The notes under the pieces: generated by a model
Seen by the model: the letters and a program-made list of their open reading frames with translations, nothing else
What the model was told of the DNA's origin: nothing
Databases searched by the model: none
Shown here: one piece after another, positions 1 through 23,100 of the stretch
Position numbering within the stretch: the stretch's first letter is position 1
Layout of the letters: each line of letters opens with the position of its first letter
Translations under genes and position numbers: made by a program
Assembly: GCA_043228905.1 (NCBI GenBank)
Contig: JBHGNT010000488.1
Coordinates: forward strand, 1 to 23,129
DNA length: 23,129 bases
Source of the DNA: Azolla caroliniana
Lineage: Eukaryota; Plantae; Polypodiophyta
Direction of reading: 5' to 3'

Positions 1-64
1 TGATGAGGATATTTGCGCCTACGATGCCCCCAATAACAATAAAAACAATGGCGACAGTATTCAT
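1..64 (-). CDS. Cys-rich transmembrane micropeptide, copy A (5' part only; runs off the window edge)
   Basis: Reverse complement from ATG at 64 reads MNTVAIVFIVIGGIVGANILI..., nearly identical to copies C and D. It has the same gagaaagATGA start context and the same upstream TATA block. Confidence 0.7.
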   Translation of the reverse strand, partial: MNTVAIVFIVIGGIVGANILI

Positions 65-1042: not shown

Positions 1043-2354
1043 CAAAAAGGTAGTTTTGGGCCTTATGAGTAAGCAAGGTTATAAATAAAGGCGTGTGCTA
1101 CATTAATAGTTTCAGTTGAACTAAGATTGCGACTCCAACTACAAGGAAGAGAATGAAGGTTTCGAAGAAGAAGGAAGCTTCCACATGGATTTAAAGAATT
1201 TTTTAGTAGTGATGCACATAAATTACTTGTGTCGGAAGTGATCGTATAATGATGCTTTCGCATGGATTTGATGAAGAATTACTTAGTAGTTGTGCACAAG
1301 AATTTCAAGTGGTGAAAATGAGGATATAGTCATGCTTCCACATGCATTTGAGTGTATCACATACCTGCGGTATCTAATAAATAGGTTTAACCTGATCTAC
1401 GAAATGTGAATAATTAAATGATCTGATATTTTGCTTAAGAGAAATTTGTTAAGAAAACATAAGAGATCCTATGGTATAGTAGATAAGAGACATTGGTCTT
1501 TGAAACGAGACATCAGTATAAGTATAAGTTAGGACCATGATCCTAATTTAAGTTAGGAAGATAAAGAATTATTGAGTTGTGATGCATGTTAAGTACAAAG
1601 CATTCACATAGTAATCCCATGTATGCTCTTTAGTTGAACGTACTAAGCAATAGAACATTAGAAATAACGGCTCTAAGAAAGGTCTCTTATATATATATAT
1701 ATAGTGTTGAATTAATTCACAAACCTCATCACATATGCACACTATATATGTGCTCAATCAATTCAATACACATAATCATCACCTGCAGAACTTCCCCAAT
1801 GATGAACTTCCACAAACCCAGATTGACTTTGATTTTCTGTGGGGTCTGTCATCATTTTATCCGACCCATCACAACTATTTTAATTGTGGATTGTGTAAAA
1901 AAAACCCTTTCTCAAAAAATTTCGTGGTTATTATGAAGCCAAGCAGAATCAGATGAGAATTAGAGGAATGTAATGATTTCGTAGGAAATGTGGCAATAAT
2001 TATAGACAAATCTGTGTGGCAATAATTATTATGGAATGTTACAATGGTTTTGTAAGCATGATTGATGACAACTGCATTATGCATTTAAAACCTGCTACAA
2101 TTTACTATCATTAAATGAGAATTTCTAGAAAAGGGCACACATCCAGACTGAAATTAATCAGAGGTTACATACACCTTAACCATGTCTTCACATTATAATT
2201 CAATGAGGGTCTACATACACATGCATATATATCGAGAAAGAGACATTTGTTTCCATGGATTAATTCCTATTCCTTGCTAGCCAAGTACATTGTGCCATGG
2301 TGGCTTAAAAACCCATTTAGTTTGGCCAAGATCAACTATAGATTTTGAGTTACT
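1043..2354 (-). repeat. Duplicated 3' flank of the peptide cassette (copy B version)
   Basis: Inverted similarity to 4986-5877 (e.g. 1043-1100 vs 5821-5877) and direct similarity to 22128-22831, with copy-B-specific extra segments. Confidence 0.85.
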
Positions 2355-2507
2355 TCACACCGGATTTTCCTGATTCGAATCTGAAAGTGCTGCCACCGCA
2401 AAGATACCGGCGCAGCAGAATGTGCAGCACATGATTAGCAGTGCGGCAATGAGATTTAGGCCTACGATTGCCCCAATACAAATAAAAATAATGGCAACAG
2501 TATTCAT
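2355..2507 (-). CDS. Cys-rich transmembrane micropeptide, copy B (50 aa, divergent paralogue): MNTVAIIFICIGAIVGLNLIAALLIMCCTFCCAGIFAVAALSDSNQENPV
   Basis: Open frame kept despite many substitutions and a 3-codon length difference from C/D. MNTVAI, VG.N, CC..CC, NQ..PV and TGA-agtaact are conserved. The true start is taken as the ATG at 2507, not the longer ORF-track start. Confidence 0.8.
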   Translation of the reverse strand: MNTVAIIFICIGAIVGLNLIAALLIMCCTFCCAGIFAVAALSDSNQENPV

Positions 2508-2571
2508 CTTCTCGATATATTGCAGCGATTCAGATCCTCCCCACAAACCGTCGATGTATGCAAATAATATC

Positions 2572-2639
2572 TATATATATACATATAGTGCCGAATCAAT
2601 TCAATTAATATAATGGAATTGACCCTCGAATTAAGATCC
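2572..2639 (-). promoter_or_regulatory. Conserved core-promoter/TATA block of copy B
   Basis: Diverged version of the shared block (GGATCTTAATTCGAGGGTCAATTCCATTATATTAATTGAATTGATT...TATATATA). Confidence 0.6.
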
Positions 2640-2970
2640 TTTCCTACCTCCCCCCCACACACACCATTTCTTTGACTTTGATGTCTTCCCTTCTCACTTG
2701 ACCTTGCAATTTATATGTCCAAACATTTGTCCAAACACTAGTGTAAAGGGCAGATGTTAGGTGGTGACATTGTAAGAAAGGAGGCGACAATTTCATTTAC
2801 AAAATGAGATGCATTCGAACGTTCGTACACGATTACATAATTACAATTGCACATACACTTGCTCACTGACAACAAAGACTCTTTAAAGTAGATATATGTT
2901 AGGGGGTCACGGTTTGGAATGTTTTTGACACCTTTCCCATGGTTAACACCTTTCTCCTGAAGAAGCTTCA

Positions 2971-2988
2971 TAAACGCACGTGCGTTTA
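2971..2988. promoter_or_regulatory. 18-bp perfect palindrome with G-box core, near the middle of the B/C divergent promoter
   Basis: TAAACGCACGTGCGTTTA lies ~460 nt from the copy B ATG and ~430 nt from the copy C ATG. CACGTG is the established plant bZIP/bHLH G-box. Confidence 0.55.
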
Positions 2989-3288
2989 ATTCATGGGCGT
3001 TTTAATTATGAACTTATGAGTCTTCTGTTTTGCCTGCACATATGTTTAATAGTCATCATGCTTAGCTTATATGACTTGTATCTAGATCTCATCAAAGGGA
3101 ATATATGAAGAATATCTATCTTTGGTGCCGTTCTAAACCAGGCCTCTAGACTCCTACAGGAAAAGTCACATTCCACATTTGGTTTTGGGAGATCGATCTC
3201 ACTTTGTTGATTACATTTAAAACATGAACATGGCCAACATTTGATGGTAATGAGGCAAGCAGTTACAGAGAATTAAAGTAATGAGGAA

Positions 3289-3349
3289 GGATCTTAATTC
3301 GAGGGCCAATTCCATTATATTAATTGGATTGATTTAGCACTATATATAT
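3289..3349 (+). promoter_or_regulatory. Conserved core-promoter/TATA block of copy C
   Basis: GGATCTTAATTCGAGGGCCAATTCCATTATATTAATTGGATTGATTTAGCAC followed by TATATATA at 3341-3348, ~70 nt before ATG 3417. Confidence 0.65.
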
Positions 3350-3416
3350 GATATGCATACATTCGGTTTTGAGGGGAGGATTTGAATTGGTGGTGCATTA
3401 TATATTATCGAGAAAG

Positions 3417-3560
3417 ATGAATACTGTCGCCATTGTTTTTATTGTTATTGGGGGCTTCGTAGGTGTAAATATCCTCATCACACTGATAATGCTATGCTGC
3501 GGGTGCTGCTGCTTCAGCATCGCTGCAGCGGTAGAAGCGAATCAGAAAAGTCCGGTGTGA
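3417..3560 (+). CDS. Cys-rich transmembrane micropeptide, copy C (47 aa): MNTVAIVFIVIGGFVGVNILITLIMLCCGCCCFSIAAAVEANQKSPV
   Basis: Intact ORF shared with three paralogues. It has a ~23-residue hydrophobic stretch, a CCGCCC cluster, an upstream TATA and a purine-rich start context. Confidence 0.82.
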   Translation: MNTVAIVFIVIGGFVGVNILITLIMLCCGCCCFSIAAAVEANQKSPV

Positions 3561-3671
3561 AGTAACTTAGAAATCTCCATGTCCGCCCACATGTTATGCT
3601 TGATCTTGGACAAATTAAAATTGTTTTAAGCCAACATGACCAACAAGGAAGAATAATGCTTGTAAACAAAT

Positions 3672-4786
3672 TAGAGAGACCATTGGTGATGATGCTATCA
3701 CGCCAACTCCGAAGCAAATCGACTGTACCACATGACATTATTAGGGCCGAGTTCACGTTACCCCCAATGCTAGTAGAGGCACTTTTTCAACTTGTAGTCT
3801 TTATTGATAGGATACATAGCCAACCACATGATAGAATATCTCATCAAGCCTTTAAGGCCTCTCGATCATTGTATGAGTCCGGCTATACTAGCTCATGGTA
3901 TGGCATGATGGTGACTTGGCTTCTTGCGAATGGTCTAGACATTAATAACCTACCTCCCCTTAGGTACAACCACACGAGTGATAACACCTTAATCTCTCAT
4001 GAGAACCGCAATAAAGTAATACGCCAAGAAATATGGCAAATTTACACTCGGTGTAAATGGATCACCCCACTAGAGCCACTCCCATCTAAAATGTCGTACT
4101 ATAAGAAACACTTCATGCACTTCTCTGAGTTAGGTTTTATCACACGGCCAAAATATCTAGATGTATTCTTACCACATGCACTAAGGGTTGCCATAGGACA
4201 ACTTAGAATATCATCTCACCAACTTGAGATTGAAAATGGCCGTACTAGTGGAGTCCCTAGGGAGGAAAGGATATGTAGGTTATGTCACATAGAGATAGAG
4301 GATGAGTACCACTTTACTTGCAAGTGTCCAACCTATGCCGAGATAAGGGCACAATACCAAGACATACTTGGTCCGTCTCCCACTCTCCCCAAACTATTAG
4401 ATACTCTAGATATAAAGAAATTAGGCAAATACATTCTAGCGCTAAAACAACACAGAGAGAATAAATTACAAAATGTTGACAATAATGCTGCTAATGATCA
4501 CGAACATGTAACAAATGCAGTTTTTCAGGAACCTGAGGAGACAACGAATGCCGACACACTTGCACCACTCGGCCTTTCCATTGATGAGGCAGAAAACCAG
4601 AGAAGAATCAGACGTCCTCGGGTGCCGGGTTTTAAAACAACTCAACGTGATGTGGACGCAATATTGAAAATAAGGGAACGTGAGCTACACCGCCTAGAAG
4701 CCATGGCTAGGGCACTCTCTACATTGGAACCCACATCAAGACCCTTTGACCCCCCACTTCTTTTCGAGAGGCTTGGGTGGAAATAA
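3672..4786 (+). pseudogene. C-terminal part of LINE ORF2 (post-RT region with Cys/His zinc-binding motif); no endonuclease or RT core
   Basis: ORF track 3596..4786. The motif C-x2-C...EDExHF...CP is typical of LINE ORF2 C-termini. The first ~25 codons of the ORF derive from the peptide gene's 3' flank. Confidence 0.75.
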
Positions 4787-4985
4787 AATTAGGCTTAGTG
4801 TATAGTCACTTTCGAGTATACTACATATTGTACACTACTAGAACTCTTTTAGTTTAAGTTCTATTTTTTTTTTACTTAATTTTATTTTTAGTTATGATGA
4901 CTGGATAAATACTCTATTGTTGTAAACCAATTGTCTCATGGGCCAAATTTGGCCTTAGAAGACGTTAATACACCTTTCTTTCTTC
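3672..4985 (+). mobile_element. 5'-truncated non-LTR retrotransposon (LINE; RTEX/L2-Crack-like C-terminus) inserted in the 3' flank of copy C
   Basis: Copy D has ...gtaaacaaat-gtcaga-tctctctctacatat..., whereas copy C has ~1.3 kb between the same flanks. The insert encodes LRISSHQLEIENGR...CRLC..EDEYHF..CP and ends in a palindrome plus a CTTT-type tail. Confidence 0.85.
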
Positions 4986-5877
4986 TTTCTCTACATATAT
5001 ATATATATATATATATGCATTTGTAGCCTCTCATTGAAATTATAATGTGAAGACAAAGGTTATGGTCAAGGTGTATGTATGTAGCCTCTGACTAAAATTC
5101 AGTCTGTGATGTGTCCCATTCACTAGAAATCATTACATACCACATTTACTACAAAATCATTACATTCCTCTAATTCTCATCTGCTTGTGATTATGTGTAT
5201 TGAATTCATTAAGTGTACATATGTGAGGTAACTTGTGACTTAATTGAGCACTATATATAGTGTGCAATATATATATATATATATATAAGAGACCTTCTTT
5301 GTTATAGCCGTTAAATCTAATGTTCGATTGCTCAGTACGTTGAACTAAAGAGCATAATGCTTGTACTTCACGTTCATCACAACTCAATAATTCTTGATCT
5401 TCATATTTCTAATATCTTAAATTAGAATCACGGTCCTAACTCATACTTACTAAATGTTGAGCGCAGAATCTCTGGTTTCAAAGACCAATTTCTTTTATCT
5501 ATTATGCCATAGGAACTCTTAGGTTTCCTTAACTGAATTTCTTCTAAACAAAACATTAGATTAATTTAATTATTCTCATTTCATAGATCAAGGTAAACTT
5601 AAGAATTAGATACCACAATTGAGACATAAGTATGTGATACACTCAAATCCATGTGGACACATGGACTCTATCCTCATTTTTAACACTCGGAAATTTATGT
5701 ACACAACTACTAAATAATTCTTCATCAAATCCATGTGGAGGTTTCCTTCTTCTTCAAAATCTTCATTCTCTTCAATGTAATTAGAGTCTAGATCTTAGTT
5801 CCATCTAAATTATTAATGTAGTACATGCCTTTATTTATAACCGTGCTTACTTCATAAGGTCCAAAACTACCCTTTTG
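4986..5877 (+). repeat. Duplicated 3' flank of the peptide cassette (copy C version, distal to the LINE)
   Basis: 4986-5586 is the reverse complement of ~22128-22720 at high identity, and the segment matches 1043-2240 at lower identity. Confidence 0.88.
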
Positions 5878-7089: not shown

Positions 7090-9690
7090 AATTTGGAGTA
7101 GCATATATACATTATACATACATATACATGCGTGCATGCATGTATACCTACATTTAAACATTACATCCGTGAATATGTATATACACACATTACACCCATT
7201 TATACATGCAGAGTGCCTAAACATGAATATATTATATTTGTACAAATATGTATTACCATATGTAAATATGTACATAAATACAATACATACTACATAGTAT
7301 ATAAATACATGCATACATATCTAGATATATATAAATTGTACAAATAAAATACAATACATACTACATAGTATATAAATACATGGATACATATCTAGATATA
7401 TATAAATGCATACATTCTACACACGTATCAGAATAAGCCATATATATTGACATACATATATACATAATACACACATTAAAATTACATATTACATATATAC
7501 ATACACATTCTTACAAACTATTTTATATATTACATATTACACACATATATTATTATACACACAAATCACAATTATATACAAAACATGTTGTGGTGTGCAT
7601 GTGTGCATTTCACAATATATACATACCAAACACAAAAAGATTACATACATAAATAAATTACATATTATATATACACATACACATACACGTAAATATAGAA
7701 GATTACATATTATATTTAATACAAATCTACATACATACAAACATGTTACATATATTACACACACACACACACATACACATAAATAAATTACATACTACAT
7801 ATCATGTAATCCATACATATTATATGATATACAAATTTACATACACATACATACAAACAAGTTACATATATGTATTACACACATACCCATAAATAAATTA
7901 CATGCTACATATCATATAATCCATACATATTATATGATATACAAATTTACATACACGTACATACATACATAGATACATACATATTCCACATATCACCATA
8001 TCTATAGGTTATACGAAACCATACAAAATACAATACTTAGTACATATATATACATATATACATTCATACACACACATTGGATATATGTATACTTACACAT
8101 ACATCGGATATATACATGTATATTATATGCATATTACAAACATACATCCATATATGAGTTATACACATACTAAACATTAAAATACACCGAAAATATAGAT
8201 ACATAAATACATTAGATATATACACATACATACATTCATATATTCATTCATACATTGCTACACGTAAATACGTACATATGCCTACAATGTCACACATATA
8301 AATTTTATAAACACACATACATACATACATTACATGCAAGCATACACATACATACATTACATGTATGCATACACATACATATATTACATGCATGCATACA
8401 CATACATACATTCCATACATATGTACATATATATCACCACATACACACACACATAGTCATACACACTACAATAATACATATATACATACACATCCATACA
8501 CATTGAATCATGTACATTGACATATGCATATATGCATAAACATATATACATACATTACATATGTTACATGTACATACATATTCCACATATCACCATATAT
8601 ATAGGTCATACGGGGTCATACAAACTACATTCCTTACATATATGCATACATATGTATACGCATACATTGGATATATGCATACATATTATGTGAATATTGC
8701 TAACATACATCTAGATATGACCCATACACATACTAAACACTCAAATACCCTGAAAATATACATACATATATACACATACGCACATGGACATACATATATT
8801 CATTCATACATTGCTACACGTATATATGTACATATGCCTACAATGATACACGTATAAATTTTACAAACATACATCCATACACATACACACATATATACAT
8901 TACATACATAAATACATACATACATACATATTCCACATATCACCATATATATAGGTCATATGGGGTCATACAAACTACAATACATACATAATATATACAT
9001 AGACATACATACATATTACAAACACACATCCACACACACATGTATGCATACACATACAAACGTACATACATTACTTATTACATATATACTCATATGTACA
9101 TGCATACATGTACATACATATATTCATTCAACACATAATGGATCCAATATACACATCTAAACTTACACACATGCCATATATACAATACATATAATACATG
9201 CAATACAATACATATATGTACATACATACACACATCCCATACATACAATGCATATGTATATACAATAGATACATCATACAATTAATACATACAATATGTA
9301 CATACATACACACTTACATATGTACACATATCACATACATATATATACATGCAATACAATACGTATGCATGTATATATAGAATAGACACACACATATATA
9401 CACATGTATGTACGCATACACATATGTATATAGAACATACACTCACATAACACACACATACATATGCATAGGCCATACGAATAATACATACACATTACAA
9501 TACATCATATGCACATGTACAGAACATACACACACATAGCACATACATACATATGCACATGTCACACAGACAACACATGGAGTACAATACATACATATGC
9601 ACATGTATAGAGCATAACACACACACACACACACACAAATATACATATCCACATGCATAAACATGCACATGTATAGAAGGTACATACACA
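7090..9690. repeat. ~2.6-kb low-complexity TACA/CATA/TA-rich tract with internal block duplications
   Basis: Degenerate (TACA)n/(CA)n/(TA)n. Duplicated blocks include ~7277-7337 vs ~7347-7408 and ~7970-8330 vs ~8570-8870. Confidence 0.9.
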
Positions 9691-9901: not shown

Positions 9902-10335
9902 ATGGCCGTTGTAGATCTCGAGTATTGCTGCTTCATTGGAGGTTTCGCATGGACCATCGATGATCGTAGGATACTTCGGCGAAGTTGTCAACTCCAAGGT
10001 TATCAATGACCATGAAACGGGACGATTACGAGGCTTTGGCTTTGTGACATTCTCTGATGAGCATGTGATGGCAGGTGTGATTCAGTCGACGAATGGAAAA
10101 GAGCTCAATGGAAGGAACATTACTGTGGACAAAGCTCAGGCAAGATCGGGTGGGGGTGATGGAGGCTATCGTGCCTCCAATGGAGGTGGTGGTTCAAAAT
10201 ATAACAAGGACAAATCAGATGGAGGAAACAGTGGATAGTGGTTCTGGTTCTGGTTGTGCTGATGGCTATAATGATACCAATGGTGGTGGAAATGGTGGCT
10301 ATGGCGGTAGCAATCTCAGTGGTGGTTATAGTGGG
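9902..10335 (+). pseudogene. Intronless, frameshifted glycine-rich RNA-binding protein (GRP7/GRP8-like RRM) copy
   Basis: ATG 9902 gives MAVVDLEYCCFIGGFAWTIDDR (RNP2-like). After a deletion/frameshift it reads YFGEVVNSKVINDHETGRLRGFGFVTF (RNP1)...ITVDKAQARSGGG. The Gly-rich tail is broken by a second frameshift/stop near 10238. Confidence 0.88.
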
Positions 10336-10420
10336 GTAATAAAAGGTATTCAAGTGGTGGCTCGGATTCACAAAATTGGAGGAAGTAAACAAAATGAAAA
10401 CTTTACAAACTTTTGTTTAT

Positions 10421-10425
<5 letters not shown>

Positions 10426-12290: not shown

Positions 12291-12939
12291 TAAAGCTCTA
12301 TGGGTTCCAGAGTGTAATTACTTTGTTTTTGTTGTAGAGAGATTAATGGCTATGGCTATGAAAGAGAATATGTTTTATAGATTAAAAGTGTTGTGTGTGA
12401 GTGATTGCATTGTAACAAGTTAGGGACTCAAATGCTCAATTTTTCTTAGCAATAAACTCAGTGTGTGTTTGTTCTAGCATTGCAACATTTTTATCCAATG
12501 AAGTTCCTGCTCAAGTTGAATGTTGTGAATGATTATTGAACATCTCATAGCATAGTATTTTTGTTATATATATGCTCTTTTAGATATATTGTTTTTCACT
12601 TCCATGAAGCCACAATATATGCATTGTTACATAGGCATGTCAGAGAAGATGGCATGGAATGAAGACAACCTTTCATGCTTAGTGATTAGATGGCGATCCT
12701 TCTTCGAAGATGGTTTGACGACACATATGATCCACATCAACATACATGCAAACAAACAAACATAAATCGATACATACAAACACATTTTTTTAAAAAGAAA
12801 TAAAGAGAAGAAAAAGAATTATTAAAAAAAGTAAAAACAAAATTTACTCTTTTCAAAAGGTGTTGCACAATCATGGTATATGTGCAATGCTAATAGCAAT
12901 GTGTTTTGGCATCACTACTAGCTTATTTTGTTGTAGTGA

Positions 12940-13280
12940 CATGTATAATACACATTCACGCATGCACATATATAGAACACATGCACACAATACACAAACT
13001 ACATACATATACACACACACATATATCATTACACTTACATGCACACACATGCACATATAACACATAGATACATACACACATGCCATATACATAAAATATA
13101 TACAACACATGCAATACAATACAATACATGCATATATAAACATGGAATACAATACACTACATATGTACATTCACATGCAATACAATACATGTCAACATAC
13201 ATACACATAACCCATATATAAAATATATACAACACATGCAATACAATATAGTATATACATACACACTTATATTGAACATA
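12940..13280. repeat. TACA/CATA low-complexity tract
   Basis: Same composition as 7090-9690, with shared words such as acacatgccatata and atgcaatacaatac. Confidence 0.85.
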
Positions 13281-13481
13281 CATGTGTTTTCTATGTAAGG
13301 CCATTTAAAATGAGTTGTTGTCAAAATATATATTTGCACTAAGCGGTATTTTTATTAACTAATTTTTTACAAAAGCGTCTCTAAAATAATAAAAAACATA
13401 CATATAAGGGGTTTATAAAAGATGCCGTGAACGCACGTGATACAACCTCTTTATATGTAGTGGAGCCCCCAGGGTCCATAC

Positions 13482-13715
13482 TTACTGACAGAAGTACTGA
13501 CACATACTTCAATGCTCATAAATGAGCTCTACACTAACTCCCAAAATATATTCCTACGCGGAATATCTTTCCAAAGGCCTCACGGTTTACGCACCGCTAT
13601 GGCTTCTCGTTGCGCACCTGTTTACGCACCGGTCTGGCCTAACCGATTGATCCCAACCGATCCGGTTCTCGGCTTGCATAGCCGATCCAGCCAATGTTGA
13701 GGTTGTATATCAACA
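13482..13715 (-). mobile_element. Proximal (U3-side) part of the 3' LTR of the minus-strand copia
   Basis: Minus strand begins TGTTG at 13715, immediately after the polypurine tract CTTGAGGGGGAG (13716-13727). Confidence 0.75.
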
Positions 13716-16145
13716 CTCCCCCTCAAGCTCAACTTGAGGTTCCATCCGCTCTTCTGGATCTACGCTCCGGTTCCTTCTAGCTTCATGCCTTGCTCGCGCT
13801 CCTCGACCTGTTCGATTCTGCGCGCCTCGACCCTTCCGGTTGGCTTGCATGCTAGTGCGGCCCTTCTCAATTCCGTTCTTGTCGCGGTGTTGGCCCTTCT
13901 TCTACTGCCTTCTTTTCCGCTTGGCCCTCAGTTGATTCGGCGTATCCGAATCAAGCATCTGAACCGACTCGGCTTCCTCAGATTGGTTTTCGCTTTCGTC
14001 CGAGTTGGCTATCTCCAACTCGTCTTCAGTCTTCCCGCCCTTGATGGCTTCGTCTTCCCCACGCTTGGTTGGCTTCGGCTCTTTCTTTCGACTGCTCCCC
14101 TTATATCCACTTTCAGAATCTTTCGGGGATCCACCCTCGGCTTCTTCAGCCGATCCGGAATCGAATTCGTCATCCAACTCGGCGTTGCGGTCTTCTAGAA
14201 CTTTTCTCCCTCTTCCGTGGTCATTTGGGACATCTCTCCCCCACAAGTTCGGCATGTCGAGGTGGCACAACCCAAGCACACCCGAGAATTGCTGCAACTT
14301 GTCCAGACCAAGACGCTTGGTGAAGATGTCGGCGGTCTGCCGATTCGTTGGAACATACTGAAATTCGACTTCACCGGAGAGGACACGCTCACGGACGAAA
14401 TGGTAGTGCACCTCAATGTGCTTAGTTCGGGCATGGAAGACGGGGTTCTTTGCTAGCTGGATGCTGTTGAGGTTGTCGTAGTAGTTTGTCATTGGATCAG
14501 ATACCTTCACCTGCAAATCCTTAAGTAGTTGCTTCAACCATATGGCTTCGCATGTTGTGACAACCACTCCTCTATACTCAACTTCGGTGCTCGACAACGC
14601 AACTGTCAGCTGCTTCTTGCTACTCGAAAGGATCCCGACACTCCCAAGAGAGAACGCAAAACCGGACGTGGATCAGTGATCGACGACGTTGTCGGCCCAG
14701 TCGGCATTGGTGTAGTCGACCAATTGCGGGGTTGTACCGGTCCGATATAGATGCCCCTGGTCCTTAGTGCCACTTATGTACCGTAGTACGCGTTGCGCAC
14801 ACTAAAGGTGCTCCTTGGTAGGTCACCCCATGAACTGACTAATCACCCCGACCGGGTAGCTGAGATCTGGTCGGGTGATGGTCAAGTATATAAGGCTTCC
14901 AACTATCTGTCGGAACCTCGTCGGGTCGCATACCTTTCTAGAATCGGGGCGAAGCTTGACGGTTCTATCCAAAGGAGTCGAGATAGACTTATAGTCGGCC
15001 ATCCAGAATTTGAAGAGCATACTTAGCACATAATGCGGTTGGCTAATCAGTATGCCTTCGGGGGTGAGGATCACTTCGATCCCAAGGAAGTAATGAAGGT
15101 CCCCTAGATCCTTCATGTCGAATGATGCCGCAAGCTAGAGCTTCATGCGGTCAATCGCACCTAGGTCGGCGCCGGTGATGACCAAGTCATCAATATAAAG
15201 TAAAATGCTAACCGACCCGAGTCGACCTTTCCGGATGAATAGTGAGGAGTCCGATTTTGATGTTGCAAAGCCCATCCGACGCAATCGTTGCCTGATCTTC
15301 ACGTTCCAGGCACACGAGGCTTGCTTTAGTCCGTAAAGGGACTTCTTTGACCGGCACACTGCTGAGGTTTTCGTTCCGGAGTGAAATCCGTGGGGCTATA
15401 CCATGTACACCTGTTCCTCAAGCTCACCTTGCAGGAATGCATTCTTTACATCCATCTGATGTAAGTGCCACCCCTTCGCCGCAACTACTGCAAGCAAAAC
15501 GCGGACGGTTGTCATCTTCACGACCGGTGCAAACGTCTCATCGTAGTCGATGTCGTGTTGCTGTGCGTAGCGTTTTGCTACTAACTGGGCTTTGTATCGG
15601 TTGACCGAGTTGTCAGTGTTGTACTTGACCTTGTACACCCACCTACATCCGATCGGCTTCACACCTTTCAGTGCGTCAACCAGGTCGCAGGTTTCATTTT
15701 CTGCCAATGCACGCATCTCTTCCTCCATTGCGGCACGCCAATTCATGTCCTTCGCCGCTTCTGCGTAGCTCTCTAGCTCACCCACTTTCGTTACACGGGT
15801 CATGTACGCATAGTGATGCACCATGTACTCATTGTATCTGAACCGCACAACAGGGTTCTTCTGGCGGGTAGATCGGTGTAATTGCTCATTAGCCGATGTT
15901 GAGGCTTTCTTGGCCGACGTGGACTTCGCTCTCGAAGACCCGTCATCACTTCCCTCGGAGTCGGACTTGCGTCGATCCGACTTGTTCCTATCTATCCTGT
16001 AATCCGACACCTTCTTCTCGTTCCTATCAGGGAATGCACAATCGAGTCTCCACTACTTGCCGGCTCTTCTTCGGACTGGTCAATCCGACTCAGTCATCCA
16101 TTCGGTCCACTTAACCGAAACGAGAGTGGACTCTCTTCGAGGGTC
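13716..16145 (-). mobile_element. Ty1/copia LTR retrotransposon, internal region, 5'-truncated (no gag or integrase in view)
   Basis: RT and RNase H remnants plus PPT. The GC-rich sequence ends abruptly at ~16145. Confidence 0.92.
13902..16010 (-). pseudogene. Copia pol remnant (RT + RNase H), broken by stops and frameshifts
   Basis: Motifs [77 protein letters not shown] and ADIFTK are spread over four ORFs. Confidence 0.92.
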
Positions 16146-16149
16146 TCGA

Positions 16150-16493
16150 TTTAAAGATTTATAGGTTTTTAGTTAACTTTTCTTTTAGCTTAATAGTATA
16201 TTAATTTAATGGCTTAATTAATGGTTTTTTATTGATTTTATAAATTTAACTTAAATGTTAATTTAATTTAATGTATTTTACTTTATTTAGATGTTTAAAT
16301 AGTTTGATTTAGATGGTTCGGTTCGGTTTCAACTTTTCCCTAAACGGTTTGGTTTTAAATGGTTTTGTTAAAAAAATTTATTAAATGGTTCAGTTTGGTT
16401 TCAACTTCGTTAAACGGTTTGGTTTGGTTTTTGTTTTATATAAACGGTTCGATTTCTTTGCCTTGAAACTGAACCGAACCATGCCAATTGCTA
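16150..16493. mobile_element. AT-rich DNA-transposon/MITE end fragment with AAACGGTT/GGTTC subterminal repeats
   Basis: Repeated aaacggtttggtt/ggttcggtt motifs, ending ...aaccgaaccatgccaattgcta (TAG on the minus strand), which resembles plant hAT ends. No partner end or TSD found. Confidence 0.5.
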
Positions 16494-16801
16494 CACACTA
16501 GAGATACAGTATGGGTAGAGTGGAACTTTTAGCCCAACTAGAGGTCTATGGTAGCGCTTCAACTTACTTTTGTTGATAAACCCCACACGTTAATGTCATT
16601 GAGTCTATGGTGATGATGGTATTAATGTATCATCCTCTCGTCATAGTTAGAGTTTCTTTTTTATGTCTTTGCTCGAAAACTTTTAGGACAATGCTTCCCT
16701 CCTCTAGATCTTTGTCTTTAACCTTATTGTCATGCCATATACATTTCGATTCATTTTTTTCTATAAATGTTAGGGTAGGTTATAGGTGATCATCGTCCCA
16801 T

Positions 16802-17577
16802 TTGTTAATAAGTATGAATATGAATGAAAATGATGATGTTGATACATTTGTTAAAAACTGGAGACTTCGACTTGATGATGTGATCCTTTCAGGACTTAGT
16901 TTGCCAAGTTCTGTTCAATCCGCCCTCTTGTTAGCCACCCTACCCCCATCATGGCCACCATTTATAAGTACAAAATCTACATCAGCCAACATTAGTGTCC
17001 CAACATTAGTGGCATCAATCTCACAAGAAAACATACTTCGTAGGGCAATAAATCAACCCTCCTCATCTCACACTGCACTTTATATCAAACATCCAAATTA
17101 CAATAAAAAACCTTACAATAAACCTAGATCAACATACCAACCTAATAACTCCAAATTTTATTCACAGACTTCTAAATTTAATGATTCAAGGAATCATAAC
17201 AAATCTAGGTTCCTTAGATCCTTTTGTACAAATTGTCAAAGGAGTGGACATGAAACAAAAGATTGTTATAGGAATCCTAACAATGGGAAAAGAACATATA
17301 AAGAAGACCAATCTTACAATGCATCACGTGATGACTACGATCAAAATAATGACATATGTCATGGTGACCAAAATTCCGATGAGGATAATGAAGACTCTTT
17401 CATTGCCTTCATGGCCCTCACTTCATTTAACAACTCTCCCACTTCAACGTGGATTCTTGATAAAGGTGCCACATGTCACCTCACCTCAAGAGTTGAATGG
17501 CTCAAAGACTATAAGGTCTTAGAGCATCCTTTCCCGGTTAGATTTGGGAACAATGGGGTTGAATATGCCCTTGGACA
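16802..17577 (+). pseudogene. Copia gag (C-terminal half, CCHC knuckle) and start of aspartic protease
   Basis: LLLATLPPSW, zinc knuckle CTNCQRSGHETKDC and protease motif WILDKGATCH. Confidence 0.9.
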
Positions 17578-18382
17578 TGTTGGGAGATAGTTCCCTCCGG
17601 ATGGGAAGGGAGAAGAACAATGCTGATAAGCAAACTCGGCCGAGGCCGAAACCGGATGAGGAGTACCCGGCTACGGAGAGCCGAATGGTGCAAACCCGGT
17701 GAGAACCGGATGAGGATTACGCGGCTACGGAGAGCCGGATGGTGCAGACCCGGTGAGAACCGGAGGAGGAGTACCCGGCTACGGAGAGCCGGATGGTGTA
17801 GACCCGGTGAGAACTGGATGAGGAGTACCTGGCTACGGAGAGCCGGATGGTGCAGACCCGATGAGAACCGGATGAGGATTACCCGGCTACGGAGAGCCGG
17901 ATGGTGCAGACCCGGTTAGAAGCGCTCTTCGGATGAAGAGACATATTTGTAAATATGTTTCTGAGAGTCCATCGTGGCTATATTTGTAAATAGCCGAAAA
18001 GTCATATTAGTATAAATATGACTTAGGGCAAACTTTTGTTGTGGTTGTCATTCTTGTTTTGCATGAGATTAGAGCGCGTAACAGTGTACAGAGAGAGAGA
18101 GAGAGAAAGAGGTCGCTGCCTCTGTTGTAACCGCCGCCTGTGGCGAAGATCGTGAGCGCGAGGTCGTTGCCTCCGTGAGCTCACTGTTGTAATTATCGTG
18201 ACATAGTGATAGTTAGCAGTCAGTGGACTGCCGTGGTTTTTCCCTCTCAAGGTTTTCCACGTTAAACATCCCGTGTACTCTTCTCTCCATTGGGTCGTGC
18301 ATTTCATTTCTCATTTTCTGTGCATAATTCTAAACTCGGTTGTGGCCGAGCGTTGCGTATAGGGGATGCGTAATTCCCGTCA
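17578..18382. mobile_element. Solo LTR (805 bp) nested in the copia protease region
   Basis: TG...CA ends (TGTTGGGA / TCCCGTCA) and 5-bp TSD GGACA at 17573-17577 and 18383-18387. Removing it restores the frame ALGH|GTAHLELSDG...KNLISV. Confidence 0.93.
17650..17919. repeat. Tandem array, 5 x 54 bp, CCGG-rich, inside the solo LTR
   Basis: Unit AACCGGATGAGGAGTACCCGGCTACGGAGAGCCGGATGGTGCAGACCCGGTGAG starts at 17650, 17704, 17758, 17812 and 17866. Confidence 0.95.
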
Positions 18383-21300
18383 GGACATGGGACTGCCCAT
18401 CTTGAACTTTCTGATGGGAACTTCATTGAAATCAATGAAGTTTACTATATACCTAACATAGCAAAAAACTTGATATCTGTCAATAAACTCACAAATGATA
18501 ATACATCCGTCGAGTTTTATCACAAATATTGTATCATTCGTCATAAGACACCCTGTGGACGAGGCTATGTCGTTAACTGTCCAAGACAAGGATGTCTTTA
18601 CCTCTTAGGTCACTCCGTGGTACCTACCGAAGAAGCACACCACATGGATGATTCAAACACATCCAACTATATGACCTTATTATGGCACTATCGATTAGGC
18701 CACTTAAACCATCAAACAATGGTTCACATGGCCCGACAACATATAGCAGTTGGTTTTACTCTTCCTAGTAAATCGAAACTATCCCTTTGCGAAGGGTGTA
18801 TATTTGGAAAACTCTCTAACTCGCCATTTCCATCCCATCCTACAACGACCACTAAACCCCTCCAACTAGTGCACACAGATATATGTGGTCCTTTGTCTAC
18901 CCCATCCCTATCTGGAAATGTATATTTCCTAACATTTATCGATGACTTTACTCGTTTCACGATGGTCACATTTCTCAAGACAAAATGTAGTGATCAAGTC
19001 CTTGAGAAATTCAAAGCCTATCATAAACTTGCAACAAATAAAAAAGAATTACCCCTTAAAGTACTCCAATCATATAATGGTGGAGAATTCAAGTCCCAAC
19101 ACTTCCAAACATATTGCCAAAATCATGGGATTCAACAATGGTTTACCATTCCATATACACCCCAACACAATTCAAGGGTTGAACGACGAAACCGGTTGTA
19201 TATGGATGCCACTCGTTGCATGGTCTCCGTTGCAAACTTTCCCCGAACATATTGGGAAGAGGTTGTTTCGACCGCTTGTTATATATTCAATAGAACATAT
19301 AGTCGATCAATTAGGACAACTCCATTTTCCTTGTGGTTTGGAAAAAATCCATATTATATACATCGAAGAATCTTTGGATGTCCATCATATGCACTCGTAC
19401 CGCTAGAAACTCGATCAAAATTAGATAATCACGCAGTTCGCACAATATTTGTTGGGTATGGCGAACCTCATGGCTACAAGGGTTATCGATTATACGACCC
19501 AAAATACAAAAGATTTATATTTAGCCAACGAGTGATATTTGATGAAGACAAATTGATATCTAATCCTCATTCACATCATGGCTATGAAAAGATACAAGAC
19601 GCGACTACCATGTCTAACACTGAATCCAATAAAGAAGTAATATCATCACCTACTAATTCTTGGCGGGCTCCACAAATGTCCTTGGAAATTCAACAAGTCA
19701 CAATTAACTCTCCTCCATTAATGCCCTCATCTCTAGAGGTCCTCCCACAAGTCTCAGGTTCAACCAATGACTCCAACTTATTGCCTTTAATAACCAAACA
19801 ATCCCAACAAACTGATGTACATACTCCAATTTTAAACAGTAACCCCAACCAAAGTAAAAAGAGCCTTAATAATCACCATAGCACTCATAAGGAAAAACTT
19901 TTAGATGGAACACAACTGACTCATATTGATTATTCATGCTCCCATCCTATCAAAAATCTCCTTATTCCACTACGACGATCCTCACGTCTTAATGGCAAGT
20001 TGAAAACCATTGGTCACAATGATGCATATGTAATTAAAATAGGATGTAGAAATACTTCATATTCCACTAATAATCAACATGTAGAACATACAAATAGTTC
20101 TGACATTGCGAAATCACCTAGTTCACTTAGCTCTACATCCACTCCAAAGAAAGTTCATATTATTCAAGATCTTTATAATCACACAAAAAAAATAGACGCT
20201 CTTGTTGCGGACCATCAATTTGAACTTGAGTTTGCATTTTCGGCTCTTGGTTCCCCCTCAACCACATCAGACATTTCTGATGATCCCTTAACTATCAATG
20301 AGGCATTGCAAAGCCCAGATCATAATGAATGGCAAGCTGCCATGGCAAAAGAACTTGAATCTCTTGAGGCCAACAAAACGTGGACCCTAGTCCCACTCCC
20401 AATGGGACGCTCACCTATTTCATGCAAATGGGTGTTGAAGAAAAAACTAAACCCTGATGGTACTGTTGCACGTTACAAAGCTCAACTTGTCGCTCGTGGT
20501 TTTTCTCAAGTTGAAGGACTTGACTATTCTGAGACATTCTCACCCGTTCTTCGCATGGCATCTTTTCGGCTCCTAATGGCTCTGGCCACCATTCTTGACC
20601 CTGAGGTACATCATTTGGATTTACAAACGGCATTTCTACATGGTGATTTACCCGAAGAAATCTACATGTCACAACCTCCTGGGTTTGAGTCACACTCTCA
20701 ACCAAACTATGTGTGTTGGTTACATCGGTCACTTTATGGACTCAAACAATCTCCTAGGTTATGGTTTCAAAAATTTAACAATTTTATGCTCTCACATGGC
20801 TATTCTAGATTGTTATCAGAACCAAATATATACATTAGACATAATCATACATCTTATCGGTTGTTAGTGGTAGCACTATATGTGGATGACATTCCTATAG
20901 TTGGAACACCATCTGAAATTACTCAAGCAAAGCTAGAACTTTCCAAAGCATTTTCAATAACAGATTTAGGTCCCCTATCTTATTTTCTAGGCATGCAAGT
21001 TACGCGTAATCGTAGTATGGGCACCTTGATCATTCATCAAAATAAATTCATTAATGAAATTTCGAAATCCTTCGGAATGTTAAACATTAAACCTTACCCT
21101 ACTCCCTTATCACTAACATGTAACTTAAGCATATCCGATGGTCCAACCACAAAAAGAGATATTAATTTTATGCAACAATTTCCCTTTAAATAATTAATAG
21201 GAAAACTTCGATATTTAGTCACAGGAACTCCTCCTGACCTTTGTTTTGCAATTAATTATCTATCACGCTTTATGCATAACACCAGCCTTATGCATTGGAA

Positions 21301-21870
21301 ATCAGTTGAATGAATTATGTGATATCTAAAACACACATCTAACTATGGATTAACATATAAACGATCCCAATCCGAAAGACCAATCAAATCACTTGTTGGT
21401 TGGTCTGATTCGGATTGGGGGGGGGGGACGTTGATTCTCGAAGATCTACTGTTGGTTTTTCTTTTATAATGGCAAGAGCAGCAGTGACGTGGCAATCGAA
21501 AAAACAAGAATCTGTGACACTCTCATCTACTGAAGCTTAATTCGTAGGAGTGGCATTGGCTGCTAAAGAAGGATTATGGTTGCAAACAGTGTTAAAAGAA
21601 CTCCAACTATGTGAACCACACCAATTGAAAATCTTCTGCGACAATATATCATGTATCTACTTAACGAAGAATCCAAAGCACTCGGAGAAAACAAAACATG
21701 TGGATTTAAAATATCACTTTATACGAGAGTTGGCCGAAGAAAACAAGCTTACCTTAGAGTTTACATCGACAAATCATATGTGGGCTGATTTTCTAACAAA
21801 GGCTCTACCTCCGGACAAATTTGAAGCTTGTTGTGAAAATTTAGGATTACAACGATTCACAACTAATTAG
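18383..21870 (+). pseudogene. Copia pol (protease end, integrase, RT, RNase H), disabled
   Basis: WHYRLGH..CEGC (HHCC), VHTDICGP, SYNGGEF, YKAQLVARGFSQ, LYGLKQS, LYVDDI, KHVDLKYHFIRE and ADFLTK. There is a stop at 21191-21193, further stops downstream and a poly-G run near 21417-21428. Confidence 0.93.
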
Positions 21871-21882
21871 TTTATGGGGGGC

Positions 21883-22127
21883 TGTTGTAATAAACTAATT
21901 AGTGTAGAATAAATAAATAGGAAACTAAATAATAAAAACGTAACCTTATGATATGAAAAGGTGCACCCCAAAAATAGGGTGCACCTATAACCACCACATT
22001 TGCTCTTTGTGTGGTCGGTTGGTTGTAAGAGAGAGACAGAAACTATCATTCAATTAAGTTTTCTTCTTCTCTTTCTCTCTCTTCCTCTCTCCCTCTCTCT
22101 CCATTCCATATTCCCTTATTTTCCACA
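21883..22127 (+). mobile_element. 3' LTR (~245 bp) of the plus-strand copia
   Basis: Starts TGTTG after the PPT and ends ...CCACA exactly where similarity to the peptide-cassette flank (ctatgaaatgag...) begins. Confidence 0.8.
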
Positions 22128-22831
22128 CTATGAAATGAGAATAATTAAATTAATCTAATATTTTGTTTCGAAGAAATTCAGTTAAGAAAACCTAAGAGTT
22201 CCTATGGCATAATAGATAAAAGAAATTGGTCTTTGAAACCAGAGATTTTGCGCTCAACATTTAGTAAGTATGAGTTAGGACCGTGATTCTAATTTAAGAT
22301 ATTAGAAATATGAAGATCAAGAATCATTGAGTTGTGATGAACGTGAAGTACAAGCATTATGCTCTTTAGTTCAATGTACTGAGCAATCGAACATTAGATT
22401 TAACGGCACTAACAAAGAAGGTCTCTTATATATATATATTGCACACTATATATAGTGCTCAATCAATTCACAAGTTACCTCACATATGCACACATAATCA
22501 ATTCAATACACATAATCACAAGCAGATGAGAATTAGGAGGAATGAAATGATTTTGTAGGAAATGTGGTATGTAATGATTTCTAGTGAAGGGGACACATCA
22601 CAGACTGAATTTTAGTCAGAGACTACATACATACACCTTGACCATAACCTTTGTCTTCACATTATAATTTCAATCAGAAGCTACAAATGCATATATATAT
22701 ATATATATATGTAGAGAGAGATCTGACATTTGTTTACAAGCCTTATTATTCCTTGTTGGTCATGTTGGCTTAAAACAATTTTAATTTGTCCAAGATCAAG
22801 CATAACATGTGGGCGGACATGGTAAGTTACT
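22128..22831 (-). repeat. Duplicated 3' flank of the peptide cassette (copy D version, without the LINE)
   Basis: Reverse complement matches 3561-3671 joined to 4986-5586. Confidence 0.9.
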
Positions 22832-22975
22832 TCACACCGGACTATCCTGATTCCCTTCTATCGCTGCAGCGATGCCGAAGCAGCAGCACCCGCAGCACGC
22901 TACTACCAGTCCGATGAGGCAATTTGCGCCTACGATGCCCCCAATAACAATAAAAACAATGGCGACAGTATTCAT
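22832..22975 (-). CDS. Cys-rich transmembrane micropeptide, copy D (47 aa): MNTVAIVFIVIGGIVGANCLIGLVVACCGCCCFGIAAAIEGNQDSPV
   Basis: Intact ORF collinear with copy C (36/47 aa identical), with the same start context and TATA block. Confidence 0.82.
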   Translation of the reverse strand: MNTVAIVFIVIGGIVGANCLIGLVVACCGCCCFGIAAAIEGNQDSPV

Positions 22976-23042
22976 CTTTCTCGATAATATATAATGCACC
23001 ACCAATTCAAATCCTCCCGTCAAAACCTAATGTATGCATAGC

Positions 23043-23100
23043 ATATATATAGTGCTAAATCAATCCATAATATAATGGAATTGACCCTCGAATTAAGATC
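23043..23100 (-). promoter_or_regulatory. Conserved core-promoter/TATA block of copy D
   Basis: Same block as in copies A-C, followed by a poly-C run at the window end. Confidence 0.62.

Follow-up and report, generated by a model that had tools for sequence, protein, structure and literature searches.

Structure of the locus

The window analysed here, the whole stretch of 23,129 nucleotides, is an unplaced 23-kb contig (C488) of the 523-Mb genome of Azolla caroliniana, cut inside copy A at one end and in the promoter of copy D at the other. Two marker proteins place the genome in an Azolla-type fern: the best named matches to its RbcS come mostly from ferns (72%, with one 60% entry labelled barley in the same ranking), and its matK shares 99% identity with a member of the 90% cluster containing maturase K of Azolla filiculoides. 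Four copies of a small open reading frame (ORF), A to D, lie within the window. The features around them are as follows.

1..64, minus strand: copy A, first 21 codons, truncated by the contig start
65..966, minus strand: upstream region of A, matching 2619-3416 in inverted orientation, with 15 substitutions over 790 aligned nt
1043..2354, minus strand: 3′ flank of B, homologous to 5005-5877
2355..2507, minus strand: copy B, a 50-codon ORF and older paralogue, head to head with C; its 3′ part also appears in X6 and X9 contigs
2508..2682, minus strand: promoter of B
3290..3416, plus strand: family promoter and 5′ leader of C, with a TATA-like run at 3341-3349
3417..3560, plus strand: copy C, an ORF of 47 codons whose product is hydrophobic over residues ~4-40 and contains a CCGCCC cluster
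3561..3671, plus strand: proximal 3′ flank of C
3672..4983, plus strand: high-copy repeat fragment inserted 111 nt behind the stop of C and absent in D, junctions mapped
4984..5877, plus strand: distal 3′ flank of C, carrying the conserved element of the family at 5140-5186
22128..22831, minus strand: 3′ flank of D, free of the insertion
22832..22975, minus strand: copy D, a 47-codon ORF and the fastest-changing copy
22976..23100, minus strand: promoter of D, truncated by the poly-C contig end

The TATA-like run lies 32 nt upstream of 3373, the start point of contigs in two small sequencing runs, and transcription of C would begin near that position. C and D are young inverted duplicates, and the family to which they belong counts at least 11 small ORFs, all free of introns. 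Neither the missing end of A nor the sequence upstream of D turned up on another contig of the genome. A single 100-N gap inside the family cluster on C13 sits next to a promoter remnant and then retroelement sequence (C13:4100297 and 4101872), and a second remnant lies at 3996113; the window may belong near the gap.

The inserted fragment behind C (~1.3 kb) reaches a depth of ~64,000 in run X3 against ~20. It had no Pfam match over the cut-off, and we take it to be LINE-like from a zinc-finger motif. This truncated repeat has a 396-codon open frame at 3596-4786 that begins in the 3′ flank of C. Since a variant found in other runs (F, below) lacks the insertion, it may be polymorphic. Three of the changes private to C are CpG transitions, which may reflect silencing. 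Elsewhere in the window, 9960-10422 holds an intron-free RRM and Gly-rich fragment in two frames (PF00076, E 1e-12), probably retrocopied from a gene for a glycine-rich RNA-binding protein. Two broken copia-type elements follow: one at 13490-16150 on the minus strand, presumably of this type by its motifs, and one at 16800-22050 on the plus strand, identified by Pfam, with five copies of a 54-nt repeat at 17650-17921 that recurs on C13. A long TACA/CA-rich low-complexity satellite with strong strand skew occupies 7100-9680 and 12730-13300. A degenerate promoter-like repeat also occurs downstream of several copies (window 1723-1783 among them) and is a possible remnant of an older tandem array.

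The gene family across the genome

Eleven ORF loci, a lower bound, came from searches of the genome and from a profile run over the window and 800 kb of tiles. Seven of them lie outside the window.

C13:4220282: copy E
C13:3704897: copy G1
C13:3728297: copy G2
C13:4012424, minus strand: copy G3
C13:4059134: copy G4
C14:14820366, minus strand: copy G5
C14:1150430, minus strand: copy G6

No intact copy beyond G1-G4 was found in the 200 kb around E and the 490 kb before it, and two extra promoter matches are remnants that carry no ORF. At all 11 loci the ORF starts with MNT, MTT or MNI behind the same promoter, and the blocks of the 3′ flank are common to them. Over aligned columns promoters are 74-99% identical; among G-type proteins, and between these and B-E, identity is 19-48%. 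Each copy encodes an N-terminal hydrophobic stretch (best 19-residue hydropathy 2.0-3.1) followed by a tail rich in Cys, Gly or both. Two flank motifs gave 9 and 8 genome matches, all at family loci, against 0 for controls. Conservation in the 3′ flank is highest in a 50-nt element ~350 nt behind the stop (5140-5186 at C), which is doubled at G3 and G5 and has no match in Rfam. The family was also considered as a non-autonomous transposon or ncRNA host, and this was rejected: the ends of homology differ by copy, the flank motifs match at 8-9 places and only at family loci, and no Rfam element reached its threshold.

G1 and G2 are a more extreme case than C and D. They sit in a duplicated block of about 11 kb whose two copies are about 97% identical; between their promoters identity reaches 99%, and 3 differences occur within 300 nt of 3′ flank behind the stop. 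Their ORFs differ at 54/181 aligned bases, with 10 gaps, against 180/5805 bases in the block, and cannot be aligned after about codon 9. G1 has a run of Gly codons and G2 the expansion of a 24-nt repeat. The 3′ untranslated part of G1 is similar to the final codons of C, which points to recruitment of the B-E tail through a shifted stop. At G3 (C13:4012424-4012242, minus strand) another frame encodes a C-D-G-C repeat tail like that of G5, and the copy looks frameshifted into a new hydrophobic tail.

Relatives outside the genome are few: one match among 14 candidates, and three proteins among 1.84 billion, all of them ENA singletons of B type. One of these relatives, P0003, reads past the usual final PV with a Trp, which may be a lost stop or an effect of the gene-calling code. 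Pfam gave no family at its cut-off for the 10 family proteins scanned. In Atlas the best value was 0.78, for C, and nothing was returned for G5; in Rfam nothing exceeded the threshold, and sub-threshold matches fell on one simple repeat only. A literature search across titles and the openings of abstracts found no description of this peptide family. Azolla expression tables, e.g., those of PMC6786969, may hold family genes under gene numbers.

Divergence of copies C and D

The sequence-only reading had held that the peptide-coding sequence diverges faster than its own flanks, and its counts were borne out. Of 141 coding nt, 18 differ between C and D; they fall in 12 codons and change 11 amino acids, codon 16 being the only purely synonymous one. 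Thirteen of the 18 differences fall in codons 14-26, the membrane helix of that reading, and codons 1-13 and 27-33 are identical. There are 4 substitutions and 1 indel in 125 nt of 5′ flank, and 2 substitutions and 1 indel in 104 nt of 3′ flank. The distal 3′ block behind the insertion adds 19 substitutions over 586 nt aligned between C and D. Coding divergence (18/141, 12.8%) is therefore ~4 times that of all flanks (25/815, 3.1%; Fisher P = 9e-6). The clustering within a 13-codon window has P = 0.0008 by base and 0.023 by codon.

Flank changes are clock-like (C 7, D 9, 1 unassigned). Relative to the flank rate, the 2-3 synonymous changes fit the 1.1 expected (P 0.09-0.33), and the 15-16 non-synonymous changes far exceed the 3.1 expected (P about 1e-6). 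The further claim that C and D differ almost only by amino-acid changes stands as a count, but not as an excess over chance: with 72-75% of sites non-synonymous anyway, 15-16 of 18 is not beyond expectation (P = 0.08-0.31). Pairwise dN/dS is 2.2-2.6 (P = 0.08-0.13), which is not significant and is rejected as proof of selection. Thirteen of the 18 differences separate D from both C and E, and five are CpG-type transitions.

The coding part diverges faster than the flanks in three pairs: C-D, B-C (39/138 coding vs 85/667 flank, P = 1e-5) and G1-G2. Between C and E it does not (11/141 coding, P = 0.75), and between D and E it is faster than the D-E flanks (P = 0.005) but borderline, without significance, against the 5′ rate (P = 0.10), with dN/dS of 0.9-1.1. 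Synonymous divergence in the ORF is ~2 times the flank rate in B-C and C-E.

Site-model tests of selection

Site models (GY94) were fitted with our own code rather than PAML to 46 codons of copies B, C, D and E only, with no recombination term. Variants from sequencing runs were tallied by hand and left out of the likelihood models. Under a one-ratio model whole-gene omega is 1.2-1.4, not different from 1. Comparisons of M1a with M2a and of M7 with M8 gave 2dL of 12-16 (P 0.0004-0.002 across the two trees and the two sets of frequencies used), with 41-49% of codons assigned an omega near 0 and 38-52% an omega of 4-7. When multi-base changes were allowed P was 0.002, and the observed value was reached in 0/80 and 1/64 null simulations. 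With a codon-level mutation hotspot allowed, omega above 1 still improved the fit under three codon-frequency settings, significantly so in two of them (P = 0.017, 0.008 and 0.067; 5/544 simulations); the hotspot model alone recovers most of the likelihood gain and adds nothing once omega is free (P 0.3-0.5).

Removal of the codons hit at CpG left the site test at P = 0.005, and the two halves of the gene taken singly gave P = 0.025 (codons 2-22) and 0.044. Dropping C gave P = 0.036, and dropping D removed the signal (P = 0.45). As 13 of the 18 C-D differences are specific to D, flank changes are even (7 vs 9) and the test fails when D is left out, the signal rests on the D branch. Counted by hand, 22-23 of 25 changes on the young branches, run variants included, are non-synonymous (P 0.015-0.10), and 26 of 32 are when the E stem is added (P 0.17-0.28). 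In codons 5-26 of B-E the 22 extra residues are without exception apolar or small (roughly, 0.75^22 = 0.002); as changes in the helix stay apolar or small, the ORF is constrained as well. The variants at codon 22 (A, V, T, G, S) all lie a single step away from GCA, and none alters the third base.

Variants in other accessions

Data from other accessions consist of contigs from 8 of 16 sequencing runs, and these show presence, not absence. Run X1 contains a C-type core. A variant F, seen in runs X2, X3, X6 and X9, differs from C at 13 coding bases (12 of them visible in X3), in 10 codons and 9 amino acids, and at no more than 1 of 155 non-coding bases (run X9; coding vs non-coding, P = 0.0004). 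F shares codons 17, 19, 22, 34 and 41 with D, adds L14, V21, V26 and W30, and combines a promoter base common to A and C with D-type codons. Relative to E, the E-type copies in X1 and X2 have L for F at codon 19, and X1 also has A for S at codon 22. Copy B carries A22V in run X3. A B-type copy is present in run X14, which bears another species label. No family contig was obtained from run X13, which is not proof of absence.

The contigs of X6 and X9 both begin at 3373 and cover only the ORF and 3′ flank. This coverage is a weak hint that F and B are transcribed, X6 being RNA by our guess and X9 being listed as DNA. One contig of run X6 on 3373-3537 joins 3537 back to 3373; it may be an artefact of library or assembly, or a circular form.

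Selection, gene conversion and mutation bias

The sequence-only reading had proposed diversifying selection or, alternatively, patchwork gene conversion from a more distant paralogue. Selection gains support from the four-copy site models, from repeated hits to the same codons in other accessions and from G1/G2, and none from the C/D ratio itself. Against it weigh the whole-gene omega close to 1, the loss of signal once D is dropped, the lack of coding excess in C-E and the borderline result for D-E, the raised synonymous divergence in B-C and C-E, and the CpG-type share of the C-D differences. Duplication with diversifying selection, as in NCR peptides, has support here that depends on copy D. 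We consider it quite likely that selection on the family is real, and the overall picture is of an unclassified family of fern peptides that probably evolves under diversifying selection, with a contribution from conversion.

Conversion has to be weighed in two forms. Wholesale transfer from one older paralogue is not supported, as D has codons 17, 19, 22, 24-26, 39, 41 and 44 in a form found in neither B nor E. Partial exchange among copies is likely and explains part of the pattern only. Taken as the main account, it would have C receive codons ~23-47 from an E-like copy, so that the C-D differences reflect an older split with relaxed variable codons (omega near 1). C and E do differ at only 2 bases in codons 23-47, their runs of identity at polymorphic sites are longer than permutation allows (P = 0.001-0.002), F joins the promoter base of A and C to D-type codons 17, 19, 22 and 41, and the D-E dN/dS near 1 is what such relaxation predicts. 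However, an E-derived tract predicts 7-11 differences where 18 are observed (P 0.0004-0.039), only 2 sites group C and E against D and B, the loci found include no donor for the codons of D, and the site test is significant both when C is dropped and in codons 2-22 by themselves. We regard this account as unlikely. Rather improbable, in our judgement, is biased mutation or fixation that mimics selection in a GC-rich ORF, through methyl-CpG decay in C after the insertion and GC-biased conversion on the D branch. The ORF has a GC content of 0.47 against 0.30-0.34 in the flanks, the CpG-type transitions would fit the first process, 9 weak-to-strong changes and 2 of the reverse kind were counted by hand along the branches to D and F (P = 0.03), and the hotspot model captures most of the likelihood gain. 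Yet 13 differences are left when CpG sites are set aside (P = 0.0006) and the site test holds up there, omega above 1 is favoured with the hotspot allowed while the hotspot becomes superfluous once omega is free, and flank changes of D have no GC bias (4 vs 3).

Given the weight that D carries, its status matters. It could be an artefact of assembly, the window being a small unplaced contig cut within A and in the promoter of D, and the core of D was not seen in the contigs of runs X1 and X2. On the other hand, the changes in D keep the frame and are mostly apolar, its flanks are ordinary, and F, a halfway form, occurs in four runs. An artefact is thus very improbable.

Peptide structure and possible role

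In B-E hydropathy is high over ~35 residues, to residue ~40, and structure prediction returned a single helix over residues 2-44 (pLDDT 78, from four sequences with low information). G12, G16, N18, L23 and C27-C28 are invariant across copies; G12 is not kept in P0002 and P0003. A single helical face for the variable sites is weak (R = 0.29-0.36).

Peptides that change this quickly usually stand at a biotic interface. With somewhat better than even confidence, we favour a family of peptides under likely diversifying selection whose predicted membrane helix acts on a changing microbial partner. The peptide would stay uncleaved and sit in the membrane as a helix, with its Cys cluster putatively S-acylated or metal-bound and the invariant G12, G16, N18, L23 and C27-C28 holding the scaffold. 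Swaps among apolar residues at positions 10, 14, 17, 19, 22 and 24-26 could then retune the surface met by a membrane partner. The partner is the least certain part of this proposal; for Azolla one would think first of leaf-cavity bacteria, pathogens and gametes. If selection is granted, we give even chances to a microbe-facing role, whether in defence or in control of leaf-cavity bacteria. A role in reproduction seems unlikely, as does, to the same degree, regulation of a host membrane protein, and we see only a slight chance of some other role.

The main structural rival keeps selection and alters the product: the N-terminal ~22 residues would be a cleaved signal peptide, and the secreted Cys- or Gly-rich products would be strictly NCR/GRP-like. 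In 7/7 aligned proteins position 22 is occupied by A, G, S or T, which fits the (-3,-1) rule for signal-peptide cleavage, and G1, G4 and G6 combine a hydrophobic start with a Gly-rich tail. We find this form doubtful, given that hydropathy in B-E extends well past such a site, that a charged n-region is lacking and that most of the variation lies before residue 27 and would be discarded.

The family carries the evolutionary signature of a biotic interface. It offers a short, testable list of lineage-restricted candidates for how Azolla controls its inherited nitrogen-fixing partner. Selection within a short hydrophobic helix, together with paralogues 23 kb apart whose flanks are 97-99% identical and whose ORFs no longer align, makes a compact case for new peptides arising by slippage, frameshift and stop-codon shift. 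Should selection fail on more data, this would still be an unclassified fern gene family.

Comparison with known systems

Animal single-pass micropeptides (TMEM52, SPAR, SMIM3) resemble the fern peptide in having a helix followed by a Cys cluster, but their matches were far below cut-offs (Pfam E 0.05-0.2; Atlas 0.76) and are likely compositional. The CYSTM/CYSPD proteins are, as outlined in PMC2804304 and PMC10840359, also small and membrane-bound with a cluster of 5-6 Cys; they have links to stress and pathogens, and palmitoylation was shown in yeast. According to the same outlines, the N-terminus of CYSTM proteins is polar and rich in Pro and Gln, and their Cys module is conserved and C-terminal. 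The layout of the fern peptide is the opposite, hydrophobic from residue 4 and with an internal Cys cluster at 27-32 of 47. With this layout and no match to a CYSTM Pfam model, membership was rejected.

Toxin gene clusters offer an evolutionary analogy only, with no homology. In conotoxin and snake-toxin clusters the genes lie in tandem, and between some neighbours conservation is higher in the promoter than in the gene itself. The same is described for ant venom peptide clusters in PMC10800049.

The closest likeness in mode of evolution is with the NCR and GRP peptides of IRLC legumes, which, as summarised in PMC6056668, form small families that grow by duplication under diversifying selection, have a conserved N-terminus and a divergent remainder, include Cys-rich and Gly-rich branches, and belong to plants with a nitrogen-fixing partner, the partner of the fern being presumed here from its lineage. 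Azolla carries an inherited Nostoc partner, as summarised in PMC6786969. The word "peptide" is absent from a 2025 review of the dialogue between Azolla and its partner (PMC12825409). In contrast to the legume peptides, the fern family numbers about 11 copies and had no sequence similarity to them that we could find, and no NCR profile matched at E<=1 in Pfam for the 10 proteins scanned (A and G6 left out). Instead of the fixed 4/6-Cys defensin-like pattern of NCR peptides, only C27-C28 is invariant over 7 close proteins, and the Cys count across the family is 2-13. Gly content is 6-15% in B-E, 15-19% in G2, G4, G5 and G6 and 43% in G1, compared with 20-30% behind the signal peptide in nodule GRPs. 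Variation in the fern lies within the hydrophobic helix, whereas in the legumes it lies in the soluble mature peptide. It is a speculative and quite unlikely idea that Azolla independently evolved a counterpart of NCR/GRP peptides, made of orphan, swappable, hypervariable cassettes behind one conserved promoter, whose membrane-helix products would keep the vertically inherited cyanobiont, or other bacteria of the leaf cavity, under control and would be selected inside the helix. The fern family evolves like the legume NCR and GRP peptides, but by its Cys pattern and the profile search it does not belong to the NCR peptides.
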